A stretch of DNA of 64,000 bases, from the NCBI RefSeq assembly GCF_058153355.1, contig NZ_CM177019.1. The stretch is one strand, 5' to 3'. Of the stretch, positions 57,414 through 64,000 are shown piece after piece. A program made the position numbers and the translations under genes. Position 1 is the stretch's first letter, and each line of letters begins with the position of its first letter. The notes beneath the pieces were generated by a model. The model saw nothing but the letters and a program-made list of their open reading frames with translations, did no database searches and was not told where the DNA came from.

Positions 57414-58193
57414 ATGACGATGAATTCATTCGAGCGAAGGAATAAGATCATCCAATTAGTGAATGAACAGGGAACCGTGCTTGTTCAGGATCTGGCGGGA
57501 GTATTTGCTGCCTCGGAAGCGACAATCCGTGCCGATTTGCGCTTTCTCGAACAAAAAGGCGTGGTTACGCGCTTTCATGGCGGTGCGGCGAAAATAATGT
57601 CCGGTAATAATGAAACCGAGACCCAGGAAGTCGGGTTTAAAGAGCGATTTCAGCTCGCCAGCGCGCCGAAAAACAGAATAGCGCAGGCGGCAGTCAAAAT
57701 GATCCACGAAGGGATGACCGTTATTCTCGACAGCGGAAGTACGACAATGCTTATCGCCGAAGGTTTAATGACCGCCAAAAATATCACGGTGATTACCAAC
57801 AGTCTCCCGGCGGCGTTTGCCCTTTCCGAAAATAAAGACATTACTCTGGTCGTCTGTGGTGGCACGGTCCGCCATAAAACGCGCTCGATGCATGGCTCCA
57901 TTGCCGAGCGTTCATTGCAGGATATTAATGCCGATTTAATGTTTGTCGGTGCTGATGGTATTGATGCGGTTAATGGTATTACGACCTTTAATGAAGGTTA
58001 TTCGATTAGCGGTGCGATGGTCACAGCCGCTAATAAAGTGATTGCCGTTCTCGATTCATCGAAATTTAACCGTCGCGGTTTTAATCAGGTACTGCCAATC
58101 GAAAAAATTGACATTATTATTACTGATGATGCCGTGTCAGAGGTGGATAAACTGGCATTGCAGAAAACACGGGTGAAATTAATTACGGTGTAG
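57414..58193 (+). CDS. gatR: DeoR-family galactitol operon repressor (intact)
   Basis: 259 aa uninterrupted; N-terminal HTH. Confidence 0.85.
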   Translation: MTMNSFERRNKIIQLVNEQGTVLVQDLAGVFAASEATIRADLRFLEQKGVVTRFHGGAAKIMSGNNETETQEVGFKERFQLASAPKNRIAQAAVKMIHEGMTVILDSGSTTMLIAEGLMTAKNITVITNSLPAAFALSENKDITLVVCGGTVRHKTRSMHGSIAERSLQDINADLMFVGADGIDAVNGITTFNEGYSISGAMVTAANKVIAVLDSSKFNRRGFNQVLPIEKIDIIITDDAVSEVDKLALQKTRVKLITV

Positions 58194-58274: not shown

Positions 58275-59174
58275 TTAACGCAATAATGGACAATCCGGTG
58301 GTAATCGACAGCGCAATGCTGCCGGAAGTATTTCAATATGGAAGTTTTGTCCACTCAACGGTTCGCCATCAAGATTAAAGGTAATTTCGTGTGGCGCTTG
58401 TATATCGAACCACGCCGAAGCACCTTCGATAATATTCGGGTTATCTTCGTCAGATTTTAAGGTTGATACGAGAGCCGGAAGAATTTCATCGCCGGTGAAA
58501 ATGCGTAGTTGCAGCAAGCCGTCGTTAATTAATGCGTTCGGGCACAATTGCTGACCGCCACCTGCCTGACGGCCGTTACCAATACCAATGACTAGTGCGT
58601 CACCTTGCCAGTGAAAGTTTTCACCGCGGATTTCACAACGGTCCGGTTGCAGTGTATCCATGCGCATTAAGCCGTGAATGATGTAAGAGACGCCACCCAG
58701 CGCGGCTTTTAATTTTTCCGGCGTTTCTGTGGTAATACGTGTCCCAAACCCACCCGTTGCCATATTAATAAAACAGGTTTTTTTGTTGACCTGCGCCATA
58801 TCAATCGCAATAGCATCACCAGCAATTGCTAGTTTCAGCGCCTTATCCAGTGCCTCAGGTATACCCACGCTGGTCGCGAAATCGTTCGCTGTACCTAGTG
58901 GCAAAATCCCCAGCGCGGGTATGTCATCGCCCTCACACTGAATCAGCGCCGAGGAAACTTCATTAATAGTGCCATCGCCGCCACCGGCAATTACCGTTGC
59001 GACGCCCAGCTTCCGGGCCTCTTCTACAAATCGGGCGGCATCGCCTTTCTCCCAGGTGACCCGCACATGGATCGTCATTCCTTCCTCGCGCAACAGCATA
59101 ATTGCTTCGCGCAAGGGTTGATTGTCAGTACTTTTGCCGTTAAGAATCAGTAAGCTGGCGGGAAATTCTGCCAT
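58275..59174 (-). CDS. yegS: Lipid kinase YegS (diacylglycerol kinase catalytic domain family)
   Basis: 299 aa; GGDGT motif. Confidence 0.85.
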
Positions 59175-59257
59175 AATCGTATGCCTTTATGATTGGTCTG
59201 TAGATAGTGTAGAGCAGAAAAGAAAAGGCGGAGTCAGAACAGGATGAAAATCGGAGG

Positions 59258-59390
59258 ATAAAAAATCAGTTCAAGGATGGGGAATTCAGTGGTTACCAGT
59301 AAGGGGGGCAACGGTACACTCGGTTTTTATCGGCATAAATGATCACTGAAAGCACTTAAGCATTATTTTACTGTGGATTCAGCGTGGCAG
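59258..59390. repeat. Degenerate copy of the P2-type attachment core plus int-proximal arm
   Basis: By-eye alignment to 60321..60455, estimated 70-75% identity: ataaaaaat, accagta.ggggg, caacggtaca, cggcataaat, cactgaaagc, tactgtgga. Confidence 0.5.
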
Positions 59391-59530
59391 CGAACATTAA
59401 CGGTAGTCAGGGACAAACTTCAAAAGAGCATATGCATCATATTCAACAAAGCAATGGCATCCTCAATGTACGATTCCAATTATATTAAATAATTCCTATG
59501 AGGTTATCTGTGATAGGCCTCCATGTCTGT

Positions 59531-59552
59531 ATTTCCTACTTATGTAGGAAAT
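59531..59552. promoter_or_regulatory. Perfect 22-bp palindrome (candidate operator) upstream of yegR
   Basis: atttcctac-ttat-gtaggaaat, ~19 bp upstream of a TATAAT hexamer at ~59571..59576. Confidence 0.4.
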
Positions 59553-59656
59553 TCTGCACAAAACATTTATTATAATCCTATTCAATAATGACAATGATGT
59601 CATTATTATATTTCAACACTAGAGAGTGTCGTTGGTGTTTAATGGGGGAAGGTGAG

Positions 59657-59974
59657 ATGAAAAAGACAGTTGCTATATCATTAATTAGTGTTTTTCTTAT
59701 GTCTGGTTGTGCTGTGCATAATGATGAGACAAGTATCGGTAAATTCGGTCTTGCCTATAAAAGTAATATCCAGCGTAAACTCGATAACCAATACTACACT
59801 GAAGCCGAAGCATCTTTAGCCAGGGGCAGAATATCTGGTGCGGAAAATATAGTGAAAAATGATGCAGCTAATTTCTGTGTTACTCAGGGCAAAAAAATGC
59901 AGATAGTTAACCTGAAGACTGAAGGGGCAGGATTACATGGCGTCGCGCGTCTGACATTCAAATGTGGAGAGTGA
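59657..59974 (+). CDS. yegR: Small lipoprotein YegR
   Basis: 105 aa from MKKTVAISLISVFLMSGC; lipobox LMSGC. Confidence 0.8.
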   Translation: MKKTVAISLISVFLMSGCAVHNDETSIGKFGLAYKSNIQRKLDNQYYTEAEASLARGRISGAENIVKNDAANFCVTQGKKMQIVNLKTEGAGLHGVARLTFKCGE

Positions 59975-60322
59975 GAATAGATTCAAGACTACCATGGACA
60001 CATCCATTTTTATCTCTGATAAGGTATTCTTCAACACCATTATTGAATGTGAGTAATAATGACAAGCAGATAGATGAAACTACAGCAGAATTTTTATTTT
60101 ATGCGGCTATCAGAAAATGATGGCATAAATATTCCTATGCTTTAGCTTCATTTTTTGTAAGCGTCAAACATGCGCGTTCTGGCTGTGCGTAGCCGGACCC
60201 TGTGCGAGCACGATGCCGTTAAGTGAAAGGCATCGTGCTATGAAGGGGAATTCTATCGATATGGTCAATGGAAGGAGGTAACCAGGTATGAATCCTTCCT
60301 TCTGTTTCATTGAATTACGCAT

Positions 60323-60349
60323 AAAAAATAAGCCCGTGTAAGGGAGATT
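60323..60349. other. P2-type attachment core at the host/prophage junction (attL)
   Basis: aaaaaataagcccgtgtaagggagatt, the 27-bp P2 core as I recall it, ~80 bp from the int stop. Confidence 0.7.
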
Positions 60350-60428
60350 TAGGGTGTCACCAGTAGGGGCTTTCAACGGTACAATGCGGGTTTGAGCGGC
60401 ATAAATTACCACTGAAAGCCCTTAAACG

Positions 60429-61442
60429 TTACTCTACTGTGGACACTGTGTGGACACTCTCGGCCTCAGTACCACCTCTTAGCGGATTAAGAGAAATGGC
60501 GTCCTGAAGGTACTCTGGCGCAAAGTGAGCGTAAACCATAGTTTGCTCAATCCGCGTGTGACCTAGTATCCGTTGTAGCGTGATAATACTTCCTCCATTA
60601 ATCATGAAATGAGTGGCAAAGCTGTGCCTTAGTGCATGTGTGGCTTGCCCCATTGGCAAATCCGGTTTTATTGCTTTCATTGTTCGTCTGAAGCGAGGGT
60701 AATCAGCATCAGGGAATAAAAAACCTCGTTTGTTATCCGCGATCATTTTGGCAACAGCCTCTGAGATCGGGACGGTGCGTGGTTTGTTTGTTTTCGTTTT
60801 AACAAACGTGACGCGGTTATGGATGATATTTTCTGCTTTCAAACGAGCTGCTTCTCCCCAACGTGCTCCAGTACTCAGGCAAAGAATCGCAATCTTTTTA
60901 TTGTCGCCGTCAAGAGCAGCAAGCAGTAAGGCAATTTCTTCCTGCGTGAGATAGCCTGTGTCTGGTTTTTCCTCCTTAAGCCTTTTTGTCCCTCTGATAG
61001 GGTGCTCACCAAAGAATAACTCCGCTTCAATCAGGGCTGTAAACATGCCGCTAATACATGTTAAATCACGATTGATACTCGAAGGTTTAATACCCTGACT
61101 TCTTCGGGTGGCGCAGTACTGGCTGATAAGCGATTTCGTAATTTGAAATGCGCATGGGTCATTCGTTATTTTTGTGAAGATTTCAATTTTTCCAAGATTA
61201 GATTTCCCATGCTCTTCGTGTTTACCCTTTAAATCCCACCAGATCTGTGTCAGCTCCGACAGACGTCGCTTGTCTGTTGGTTTTGATAGCCATTCTTTAT
61301 TGTGGTGGTTGTACAACGTGTATTTCTCGAAAGCGACAGCTTCGCTTTTCTTATCAAACTTCCTACGGATGCGTTTTCCATTACGTCCAGTAGGGCGGAT
61401 GTCCACTTCATATCGACCATCATCGAGTTTTTTGATTGCCAT
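60429..61442 (-). CDS. int: P2-type tyrosine integrase
   Basis: 337 aa; catalytic RxxR...HxxRH...Y signature in the C-terminus. Confidence 0.9.
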   Translation of the reverse strand: MAIKKLDDGRYEVDIRPTGRNGKRIRRKFDKKSEAVAFEKYTLYNHHNKEWLSKPTDKRRLSELTQIWWDLKGKHEEHGKSNLGKIEIFTKITNDPCAFQITKSLISQYCATRRSQGIKPSSINRDLTCISGMFTALIEAELFFGEHPIRGTKRLKEEKPDTGYLTQEEIALLLAALDGDNKKIAILCLSTGARWGEAARLKAENIIHNRVTFVKTKTNKPRTVPISEAVAKMIADNKRGFLFPDADYPRFRRTMKAIKPDLPMGQATHALRHSFATHFMINGGSIITLQRILGHTRIEQTMVYAHFAPEYLQDAISLNPLRGGTEAESVHTVSTVE

Positions 61443-61557
61443 CAGAAAACCCTCCGAGTGGTGTGTTTTTTGGCGACTACTAATCGCTTTTTTCGTGGTG
61501 GCTGAAATTTAGCCACCAATAGTAGGCACTTGTGATGAATATATTCACGATGAATTG

Positions 61558-61857
61558 TTAACCAGTCTTTTGACCGGAGTGGGGCGACGTTGTTTCGTTT
61601 TGCCCAAAGTGTGCGAGAGCGGGCGCAATTTGCCCGGACTCAGGAGCGATCTGATTGGTCATGAACCATAAAGTGTATTTGGTGAATTGTGGGGTCTGCA
61701 GGATGTTCATCATGACATCTGTTGGAGGTGTTGAACGACCACTTTCATAGTAACTCAGCGTGCCATACGGAACCCCTGTTAAATCAGCAAGTTGTTGTCT
61801 GCTCAAATACTCTGATTTTCGCATTAAGACTATCTTCTCGCTTATCGTGTTTGACAT
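61558..61857 (-). CDS. C: P2-type immunity repressor C
   Basis: 99 aa with HTH (LSRQQLADLTGVPYGTLSYYESGRSTP). Confidence 0.85.
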   Translation of the reverse strand: MSNTISEKIVLMRKSEYLSRQQLADLTGVPYGTLSYYESGRSTPPTDVMMNILQTPQFTKYTLWFMTNQIAPESGQIAPALAHFGQNETTSPHSGQKTG

Positions 61858-61971
61858 GGTGTTTAGATCTCAATAGTATTTAGTTTAGATGTAGATTGTT
61901 TAGTGCTTGGATGTGGGCACTAAAAGGCATTATAAGGCATTAAACGCAATTCATGAGGGCTGGAGGACGAC
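61858..61971. promoter_or_regulatory. P2 Pc/Pe divergent promoter-operator switch region
   Basis: Divergent C and cox starts; tttagat-type direct repeats (tttagatctc, tttagtttagatgtagattgtttag). Confidence 0.6.
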
Positions 61972-62247
61972 ATGAGCAAGCAAGTAACACTCATGACTGA
62001 TGCGATTCCTTATCAGGAGTTCGCAAAACTAATAGGAAAATCGACAGGAGCGGTTCGTCGGATGATCGATAAAGGAAAGCTGCCTGTAATTGATATGACC
62101 GATCCACAATCAGCTTCAGGTCGTGCAGGTGAATATTGGGTATACCTTCCGGCATGGAATAACGGACTAAAACTGGCTTATGAAAGCCGCCCTAAAGAGA
62201 TTCGTGACGGCTGGTTGATGTGGTTAGGTCTCGGTGAACCACGTTAA
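61972..62247 (+). CDS. cox: P2 Cox (excisionase / repressor of Pc)
   Basis: 91 aa, first gene of the early rightward operon. Confidence 0.85.
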   Translation: MSKQVTLMTDAIPYQEFAKLIGKSTGAVRRMIDKGKLPVIDMTDPQSASGRAGEYWVYLPAWNNGLKLAYESRPKEIRDGWLMWLGLGEPR

Positions 62248-62428
62248 GGAGAACCGTATGAATGAGCCTCGTTGTATTGCTCAGTTACTGCGTAACGAAA
62301 GCCCCAGGGCGATTGACTTCAACATCACCCACGGTAAGGGGCGTAAGGGAATCATTATCCGCACCAAAAAACAGAGTCCGTTAAAAAAGGCTCTGACCTT
62401 TCTGAAAAGCCGGAGGGTATGGAAATGA
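62234..62428 (+). CDS. P2 orf78-like small protein
   Basis: 64 aa ORF overlapping the cox end, in P2 gene order. Confidence 0.6.
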   Translation: MNHVKENRMNEPRCIAQLLRNESPRAIDFNITHGKGRKGIIIRTKKQSPLKKALTFLKSRRVWK

Positions 62429-62925
62429 CAGTGATGACGCTCAATCTCGTTGAAAAACAGCCAGCAACTATGCGCCGGATAATTGGTAAGCATCTGGCCG
62501 TCCCTCGCTGGCAGGAGACATGCGATTATTATAATCAGATGATGGAACGTGAACGGCTAACGGTTTGCTTCCATGCGCAGTTAAAACAGCGTCACGCAAC
62601 GATGCGTTTTGAAGAAATGAACGACGTCGAACGTGAACGACTGGTATGTGCAATTGATGAATTGCGTGGGGCATTCTCAAAACGCCGTCAGGTTGGCGCA
62701 AGTGAGTATGCATATATTAGTTTTTTAACAGTCAGTCAGCGTCGCACTTTATTTATGCACGCACGACTGACAGAAAAAGAATTTAACCAGCCATACTGGC
62801 GAATTAATGAAGAATCATGTTACTGGCGTGATGCTTTATTCCGTGCATTACGTGAATTATTCAGTCTGTTTGAGTATGCACCGACAATTCTGACGTCGGT
62901 AAAACCAGAGCAATATCTGCATTAA
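62425..62925 (+). CDS. B: P2 replication protein B
   Basis: ~166 aa; position after cox/orf78. Confidence 0.75.
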   Translation: MTVMTLNLVEKQPATMRRIIGKHLAVPRWQETCDYYNQMMERERLTVCFHAQLKQRHATMRFEEMNDVERERLVCAIDELRGAFSKRRQVGASEYAYISFLTVSQRRTLFMHARLTEKEFNQPYWRINEESCYWRDALFRALRELFSLFEYAPTILTSVKPEQYLH

Positions 62926-62955
62926 GTAATTAACCAGAGTTTTTAACGCACTTAA

Positions 62956-63213
62956 TTGTGCGGGGCTTCTTTTTGCCTGGAGAAAGTCATGCATACAGTT
63001 TCTGAAAATCAGTGCGGTATATACGCATTACTGCTGCAACAGGCCAGAACCGAAGCACAGGCTGACGCTGCGACGCGCTTTTCTTCTCATCTTGACGCCA
63101 TGATTCGCCACATCACAAAGGCGGAGTTATCCCGCGTGGAGATAGTCGAGCTGCTCAGTCAGGAGTCGGAAAAATTTCACAATATCGGATTGTCTCGTGG
63201 GGAGGTGCTTTGA
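62956..63213 (+). CDS. P2 orf80-like protein
   Basis: 85 aa ORF in the early operon. Confidence 0.6.
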
Positions 63214-63515
63214 TGTCCTGTTCTCATTCAGTTGTATTACTGAATAACGCCTTAAAAATCGCCGTTATGGAAAATGGCGATTTGTCTCTTATTCAACTTG
63301 GTCTTGATAAAGAAAAGCGCGACATAACTGAATCTGTTATCGCGATTTATCAGAGCGAATTAAACCTCCTGTCTGATGTGATCAATTTACTTGTGAAACG
63401 CGCTGTATTTCACAAGCAAATTTCCTCAGTGGATGAACTGACAAAATTAACGACAGAACTCGCCAGCTATTGCGCTGATGAATTTAAGAAACTGAACGAC
63501 AAAAGGAACTGGTAA
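63210..63515 (+). CDS. P2 orf81-like protein
   Basis: 101 aa; 4-bp overlap with previous ORF. Confidence 0.6.
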
Positions 63516-63739
63516 TGCCGGACAACGTAGATTTCATTCAGGAACAACAGGCTGAATTACTGGAGCGCCAGATTAACGCGGCAAGGGTAAAACATTGCGG
63601 TGCTTCTGCGCTGGTTTGCGAAGAGTGTGACGCGCCAATACCTGCTGCCCGTCGTGCGGCTTATCCGTCAGCCACGCGTTGTGTTTCCTGTCAGTCAGTC
63701 TTTGAAGCAAAAAACAAACATTACCGGAGAACGGCATGA
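63515..63739 (+). CDS. P2 orf82-like TraR/DksA-family zinc-finger protein
   Basis: 74 aa with C-x2-C ... C-x2-C motif. Confidence 0.65.
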   Translation: MPDNVDFIQEQQAELLERQINAARVKHCGASALVCEECDAPIPAARRAAYPSATRCVSCQSVFEAKNKHYRRTA

Positions 63740-64000
63740 GTATTCGTATTGAAATTGGCGAACGTTATGTCGTTACCAGTGACAGCTTCCAGTTTATTCT
63801 CCACGAGAAAAAGAGAGCGGAAAGCGGTAAAAACGCCGGTCAGGAATGGCTGGCGGTGGTTGGTTATTACCCGAAATTAAGCCAGCTCGTTTCCGGCCTG
63901 ATGCATCACGATATTCTGACCGGAAGCGCAAAGTCTTTTGCTGATTTAAACGCGCAGGTTGAGCAACTCAGCAAGCGTTGTTCAGAGGCTTTTGGCTCAT
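63736..64000 (+). CDS. P2 orf83-like protein, truncated by the window end
   Basis: ATG at 63736 overlapping the orf82 stop; frame open to position 64000. Confidence 0.5.
   Translation, partial: MSIRIEIGERYVVTSDSFQFILHEKKRAESGKNAGQEWLAVVGYYPKLSQLVSGLMHHDILTGSAKSFADLNAQVEQLSKRCSEAFGS

Follow-up and report, generated by a model that had tools for sequence, protein, structure and literature searches.

A palindrome at the yegR promoter, beside a resident P2 prophage, is very probably an EvgA box

When a perfect palindrome occupies the promoter of a small gene at the edge of a prophage, is it read by the phage or by the host? The question is raised by a 64-kb window (the whole stretch of DNA analysed here, 64,000 nucleotides of contig NZ_CM177019.1 in RefSeq assembly GCF_058153355.1, to which all positions refer unless another record is named). 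The gene order in the window is gatD, gatR (57414-58193, plus strand), yegS (58275-59174, minus strand), yegR (59657-59974, plus strand) and then a P2 prophage. yegS, which encodes a lipid kinase, is the divergent neighbour of yegR. Based on its open reading frame and translation, yegR encodes a 105-residue lipoprotein of unknown function with the lipobox LMSGC, annotated in RefSeq neighbours as YegR or lipoprotein YegR. A Pfam search with the protein returned no family, and over its full length YegR matches phrog_21109, a PHROG of unknown function. A preliminary description of this DNA took the palindrome for the site of a dimeric regulator, possibly a phage-type repressor, and yegR for regulated prophage cargo.

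The palindrome, ATTTCCTAC-TTAT-GTAGGAAAT (as a whole ATTTCCTACTTATGTAGGAAAT), extends from 59531 to 59552 and is assigned to neither strand. Its two 9-nt arms are 100% complementary and are separated by a 4-nt spacer, so the sequence of the perfect 22-bp repeat is as first described. The feature had been given as 59531-59576; the start is right, while the palindrome stops at 59552 and position 59576 is the last base of a TATAAT hexamer. That hexamer (59571-59576, plus strand), which from the sequence is the probable -10 element of the yegR promoter, is present as claimed, although it begins 18 nt after the end of the palindrome and not about 19 bp. The distance of about 105 bp to the start of yegR is also roughly correct, the ATG being at 59657 and not 59658, which leaves 104 nt. 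Within the palindrome, the 18-bp core TTCCTACTTATGTAGGAA (59533-59550) is the candidate EvgA box of the yegR promoter.

The block AACATTTATTATAATCCTATTC, which includes the -10 region, is unchanged in all nine alleles that were aligned. No good -35 element was found; GAAATT at 59548-59553, overlapping the right arm of the palindrome, is a poor candidate, and it is due to this poor -35 that the TATAAT promoter was not called by a consensus promoter scan. Transcription of yegR would start at about 59583, some 7 nt after TATAAT, and with such a start the centre of the palindrome would fall near -41.5. This is the classical position for activators that touch RNA polymerase directly. The GC content of the yegR region is about 38-40%, as compared to 49% for the whole window, and the yegR/yegS spacer has been flagged for H-NS (PMC3946193). 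Another perfect palindrome, AATAATGACA-ATGA-TGTCATTATT, lies at 59584-59607, just past the -10 element and at the start of the putative 5' untranslated region. In the window allele it can form an RNA hairpin (z = -2.3), whereas K-12 has four substitutions there and no hairpin; as the hairpin is allele-specific, it was kept apart from the regulatory site. An Rfam scan of 59000-64000 at E<=1 gave no match and attL duplicates only the last ~27 nt of cyaR, so no riboswitch or small RNA accounts for the palindrome.

Palindromicity by itself carries little weight. The exact pattern, with up to three mismatches allowed, has a single match in the window and none in 100 shuffles. Yet perfect inverted repeats as a class (arms of 9 nt or more, spacers of up to 10 nt) number 13 in the whole window against 2.6 +/- 1.5 in shuffles. 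The palindrome belongs to an enriched population of repeats and is not individually extraordinary. Given 13 such repeats in one window, its significance derives from its position, its conservation and its match to a known motif.

The conservation extends well beyond strains that carry P2. Of 5426 complete E. coli genomes, about 5417 contain a 65-bp segment of the yegR promoter, P2-free strains among them; in a set of 5418 records, 5037 have the K-12-type 30-mer spanning the palindrome without a mismatch and the other 381 have it with about one. Among the nine aligned alleles, five come from strains in which yegS-yegR-trhP is present without a prophage (EcN, BL21(DE3), O157:H7 7409, UID2309220009 and P276M). 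The 18-bp core is unchanged in eight of the nine, the exception being a single A-to-G change in the right arm in P276M; the flanks of the core show about 11% divergence between the window and K-12, plus indels. The common E. coli allele, AATTCCTAC...GTAGGAAAT, has perfect arms of 7 bp, then one mismatch, then an outer pair. At 59532 the window has a T where nearly all E. coli have an A, which lengthens the perfect arms from 7 to 9 bp. As the left arm of the common allele is AATTCCTAC, the perfection of the arms over nine of nine positions is peculiar to the window allele, to which only 21 records are at least 99% identical. In a divergent syntenic Escherichia (L014), the site reads TTCCTAC-AAAC-GTAGGAA at the same distance from the ATG, within flanks that are otherwise unalignable. 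Retention of the arms while the spacer AAAC replaces TTAT is the signature of protein half-sites. Absence of the palindrome from orthologous yegR promoters had been named in the preliminary description as evidence against its reading; the opposite was found, the site being conserved with or without P2. YegR homologues in three other enterobacterial genera (L016-L018) have no EvgA-like box and a different gene context, so the box is lineage-specific and these homologues are uninformative on the Escherichia promoter.

This pattern of conservation bears on whether the palindrome is a product of chance or a structural feature, namely a cruciform, an RNA hairpin or terminator, or the leftover of an ancient att region. 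About 2.6 perfect inverted repeats of such size are expected per 64 kb, a hairpin of -11.5 kcal/mol is possible and the region is AT-rich. However, the arms are held across E. coli and in one divergent Escherichia genome, with the one change in P276M, while spacer and flanks vary, which points to half-sites read by a protein and not to a stem, in which compensatory changes would be tolerated. The palindrome also lies outside the segment homologous to P2 attL, which ends at 59377. We therefore regard a chance or structural origin as very improbable. As a terminator the palindrome was considered and rejected, there being no T-run after the stem on either strand and no terminator called in 59100-60500.

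Several other features of the interval were observed alongside the site. The yegS-yegR-att interval of the window (59175-60320) is a rare divergent allele, found with at least 99% identity in about 20 of the 5426 genomes, APEC O78:H51 E19025 among them, and with about 89% identity in most others; such a distribution suggests that recombination brought it in from a divergent lineage. Between yegR and the att region, a segment of 170 bp (59980-60149) is present in the window and EcN and absent from K-12, BL21, O157:H7 and others, and at least 80% of the query 59175-60430 is covered in about 946 of the 5426 genomes. A 52-aa open reading frame (59962-60120) is found there.

The match to a known motif is with the sites of EvgA. 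The 18-bp core is letter for letter the same in K-12 MG1655 and DH1, where it lies about 106 nt upstream of yegR. Scanning 34 kb of K-12 around evgAS and ydeP for TTCCTAC-N4-GTAGGAA with at most three mismatches gave five matches, against about 1.4 expected from an analytic estimate, and all five are upstream of known direct EvgA targets: TTCTTACGCCTGTAGGAT in the emrK/evgA spacer, TTCTTACAACTGTAAGAA upstream of frc, GTCTTACAATTGTAGGAA upstream of yfdX, TTCTTACAGCTGTAGGCA upstream of safA and TTCTTACAGGTGTAGGCT upstream of ydeP. Over the 14 outer positions the window core differs from these five sites by at most two to three mismatches, and it has such matches nowhere else in the 34 kb. A weaker second site resembling an EvgA box, ATCTTACAGTTGTAGTTA (15.9 bits), was observed 38 bp downstream of the main yfdX box in K-12 (L003, 16501-16518). 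The symmetrised consensus of the five sites is TTCTTACAGCTGTAAGAA, in agreement with the EvgA consensus TTCYTACA-N2-TGTARGAA reportedly given by Masuda and Church in 2003. To that consensus the yegR core conforms at eight of eight positions in the right half and seven of eight in the left. The EvgA box is said to have been defined, and yegR footprinted, in the work of Masuda and Church (2003), Itou et al. (2009) and Ma et al. (2004).

The EvgA boxes of the K-12 regulon (ydeP, safA-ydeO, yfdX, frc/yfdWUVE, emrKY-evgAS and yegR) share the half-sites TTCYTAC and GTARGAA with a 4-nt gap, and they are likewise found 100-250 nt upstream of the start codon. The site in the window is unlike the other five in its centre, ACT-TA-TGT where they have ACA-NN-TGT, and in the perfection of its arms over 9 bp. 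The deviant centre counts against EvgA as the reader, as does the variable spacing between box and -10 among EvgA promoters. With a position weight matrix made from the five K-12 sites, the yegR palindrome has the highest score of the window, 15.0 bits, and the next site has 11.6. However, the best scores of shuffled windows are 13.2 +/- 1.9 bits on average and reach 19.4, so the score at yegR is not significant alone and the matrix was not used as stand-alone evidence.

Published work on K-12 adds binding and expression. According to a review, EvgA strongly binds the yegR promoter (PMC8147483), and yegR is listed among the genes under EvgA control. All directly EvgA-regulated genes are reported to carry an EvgA site (PMC4283999). 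yegR was induced 11.9-fold together with yfdX, ydeO, emrK and ypdI (PMC5811628); by these K-12 induction data, the window site is the same as a K-12 site upstream of a gene that rises with EvgA/EvgS activation. evgA, along with its promoter, was found in 5398 of the 5426 complete E. coli genomes, and the source genome probably encodes evgAS outside the window. Given the above, the palindrome is very probably the EvgA box of the yegR promoter, at which EvgA, a response regulator of the NarL/FixJ family and partner of EvgS in an acid-sensing two-component system, would bind as a dimer. This reading is based on the identity with K-12, the motif common to other EvgA targets and the P2-independent conservation, all observed here, and on EvgA binding and yegR induction as taken from the literature. 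That yegR is an EvgA target promoter is already known from published work. Of the preliminary description, the proposal that a site for a dimeric regulator overlaps the yegR promoter is supported, as the palindrome matches EvgA sites and covers the -35 position.

The departure of the yegR site from the other EvgA sites at its centre is also what would favour use mainly by another LuxR/FixJ-type helix-turn-helix regulator, such as RcsB as homo- or heterodimer, NarL/NarP, UhpA or GadE. The recognition helices within this family are related. The half-site ATTCCTA resembles a half-site of the RcsAB box, TAAGAATATTCCTA, and the centre TACTTAT fits the NarL heptamer TACYYMT. Like the yegR site, the RcsAB box and the NarL 7-2-7 sites are AT-rich inverted repeats read by LuxR-type helix-turn-helix dimers. 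Their half-site order and spacing are different, however: the half-sites of the RcsAB box are in the opposite order and abut, high-affinity NarL sites are arranged 7-2-7, and there is no evidence tying those regulators to yegR. TTCCTAC, four nucleotides and GTAGGAA, by contrast, is the arrangement common to five EvgA-dependent promoters, and it is to EvgA that the literature assigns both binding (PMC8147483, a review) and induction (PMC5811628). Main use by such another regulator is accordingly very improbable in our view.

With EvgA as the reader, activation of yegR could proceed as follows. Mild acid would activate EvgS, leading to phosphorylation of EvgA, and a dimer of EvgA-P would then bind the TTCCTAC and GTAGGAA half-sites at the place of the -35 element, about 18-40 nt upstream of the conserved TATAAT. 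Bound there, EvgA-P would recruit or stabilise RNA polymerase at a promoter that has no usable -35, and it would probably also counteract H-NS on the AT-rich yegR region. The outcome would be transcription of yegR along with ydeP, safA-ydeO, yfdX, frc and emrKY. Under this scenario the yegR promoter would have a class-II-like geometry and be subject to H-NS anti-silencing.

The resident prophage has an operator of its own, and it is of another kind. The left boundary of the prophage is the att core AAAAAATAAGCCCGTGTAAGGGAGATT (60322-60349, assigned to neither strand), which at an empty site is the 3' end of cyaR. This core is an exact 27-nt match to the annotated attP core of P2, and over 31 bp at att the window and empty-site strains agree at 100% identity. 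From 60305-60322 onwards the window is homologous to free P2 and Peduovirus genomes, and its prophage portion is 98.6% identical to phage P2. It includes the integrase gene int (60429-61442, minus strand), an intact C repressor gene (61558-61857, minus strand) and cox (61972-62247, plus strand). The C operator (61861-61890, plus strand) consists of the direct repeats O1 (61861-61868) and O2 (61883-61890), both GTTTAGAT, which are 22 bp apart and flank the -10 element of Pe. The window has no further copy of GTTTAGAT; the two stand where the P2 annotation places O1 and O2, and window and P2 share an identical Pe region. The half-sites of the palindrome were sought in the immunity region of the prophage and none was found.

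Like the yegR site, O1 and O2 are short repeated elements that overlap a promoter and are read by small helix-turn-helix dimers. However, O1 and O2 repeat 8 bp in direct orientation, with their centres 22 bp apart, inside the prophage and on either side of the Pe -10, whereas at yegR the repeat is inverted, has an unrelated sequence and overlaps a -35 position beyond the prophage boundary. Could the palindrome nevertheless be an operator for a phage-type repressor, be it P2 C or that of another prophage, with yegR as cargo set by lysogeny? In favour are the P2 prophage with its intact C gene about 770 bp downstream, the palindromic sites of many phage repressors and the relics of P2-type att sites that flank the yegR island. 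On the other hand, P2-family C repressors of all seven immunity classes use non-palindromic direct repeats, and their operators are made of 8-bp half-sites two to three helical turns apart, over the -10 or -35 of Pe (PMC2995052). GTTTAGAT is missing from the yegR region just as the palindrome half-sites are from the immunity region, and palindrome and yegR occur together in P2-free strains and nearly all E. coli. P2-like prophages, for comparison, are borne by about 30% of natural isolates (PMC2995052). The phage records searched for yegR or the palindrome yielded only two carriers, a "partial genome" and a 2.3-kb junction fragment, and not one free phage genome. An operator for a phage repressor is thus extremely improbable. 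The suggestion of P2 C as the regulator fails, since C reads direct repeats found only at 61861 and 61883 while the palindrome matches EvgA sites; set beside the P2-family C operators, a comparison that had been proposed at the outset, the palindrome does not fit the definition of a P2 C operator, being an inverted repeat.

Nor is yegR cargo of the resident prophage, as had been supposed. With the att core at 60322-60349 and phage homology from 60305-60322, yegR and its promoter are about 350-770 bp outside the prophage. The gene lies on the chromosomal side of attL, is present in the five P2-free strains and is absent from P2 and other Peduovirus genomes, so that it does not behave as a moron of this prophage. 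One GenBank entry deserves mention here: ON470606.1, "Escherichia phage vB_EcoM-720R8, partial genome" (L012, 1-2900), holds the chromosomal genes gatR, yegS and yegR beyond attL. The prophage border in that record is over-extended, and borders of this sort may be behind the existence of a PHROG of YegR's own, phrog_21109.

An older phage connection is another matter. In the yegS-yegR spacer, 59259-59377 (plus strand) is a decayed P2-type attL, composed of a core-like sequence, the Cox-binding or P' side, and the end of an integrase gene with its last codons and stop. This segment aligns over 122-123 nt, at 75-76% identity, with the attL and int end of the window itself (E 4e-18), and it matches P2 24355-24476, which comprises the attP core, the Cox-binding region and the int end with its stop (E 1e-16). 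In the majority E. coli allele, 58 bp within this relic are deleted. On the other side of yegR, directly left of the att core, 60256-60297 (plus strand) resembles the P arm of P2 attP with its Int arm site and IHF region, at 79% identity to P2 24293-24334 (E 1e-4). Such P-arm/IHF-like sequence is found beside the att core in other genomes as well (L007, 2571-2605; L014, 2169-2239). At the empty site of BL21 its identity to P2 is 83%, and in L014 it is 84% over 74 nt, contiguous with the core (E 1.6e-15). Since P-arm/IHF-like sequence is present even at empty sites, the attB that P2 prefers, at the 3' end of cyaR, has the appearance of an old attR.

yegR thus lies in an AT-rich island of about 1.1 kb between a decayed P2-type attL and an attR-like site. 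The attL and attR parts are in the correct order and orientation, and as they bracket the island, an ancient P2-like origin of yegR is conceivable. The content of the island gives no such indication: blastx for remnants of Int, D, Ogr, C and Cox found none, with all E-values above 0.4, and no YegR homologue was found in free phage genomes. It is possible, although we consider it rather doubtful, that yegR is the last surviving cargo of an ancient P2-like prophage at the cyaR site (locI) which became fixed in Escherichia and was wired into the EvgS/EvgA acid regulon via the palindrome. Even so, an ancient origin of this kind leaves the present-day reader of the palindrome unchanged.

The cryptic P2 remnant PR-X of K-12 (yegZ-ogrK) offers a parallel. 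PR-X likewise sits at the attachment site in the cyaR 3' end, its annotation starting inside cyaR, and in both K-12 and the window yegR is outside the annotated prophage. In K-12 a D'-ogr remnant of 0.6 kb follows directly after yegR on the same strand. The window instead has the left end of a P2 prophage (attL, int, C, cox and the start of the early operon), with int convergent with yegR. Induction of ogrK together with yegR has been reported (PMC5811628). A scan of 59975-60428, between yegR on the plus strand and the convergent int on the minus strand, found no terminator-like site; with no terminator before int, transcripts begun at the EvgA-activated promoter could read on into prophage DNA. 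In lysogens like the source strain, such EvgA-driven read-through could run antisense into int.

As to the palindrome itself, the present analysis is a re-identification of a documented EvgA target promoter and adds very little that is new. It does correct a tempting inference, in that a prophage-adjacent gene with a palindrome in its promoter need not be under the control of a phage repressor. It is also of value for annotation, as yegR, yegS and gatR are mistaken for phage genes by prophage predictors and in at least one GenBank "phage" entry (ON470606.1). The att relics around yegR make a modest evolutionary point. If the ancient-prophage account is true, the "empty" attB preferred by modern P2 would be the attR of the relic, and the leftover P-arm-like Int/IHF region might add to the preference of P2 for this site; yegR would then exemplify a phage-borne gene domesticated into a host stress regulon.
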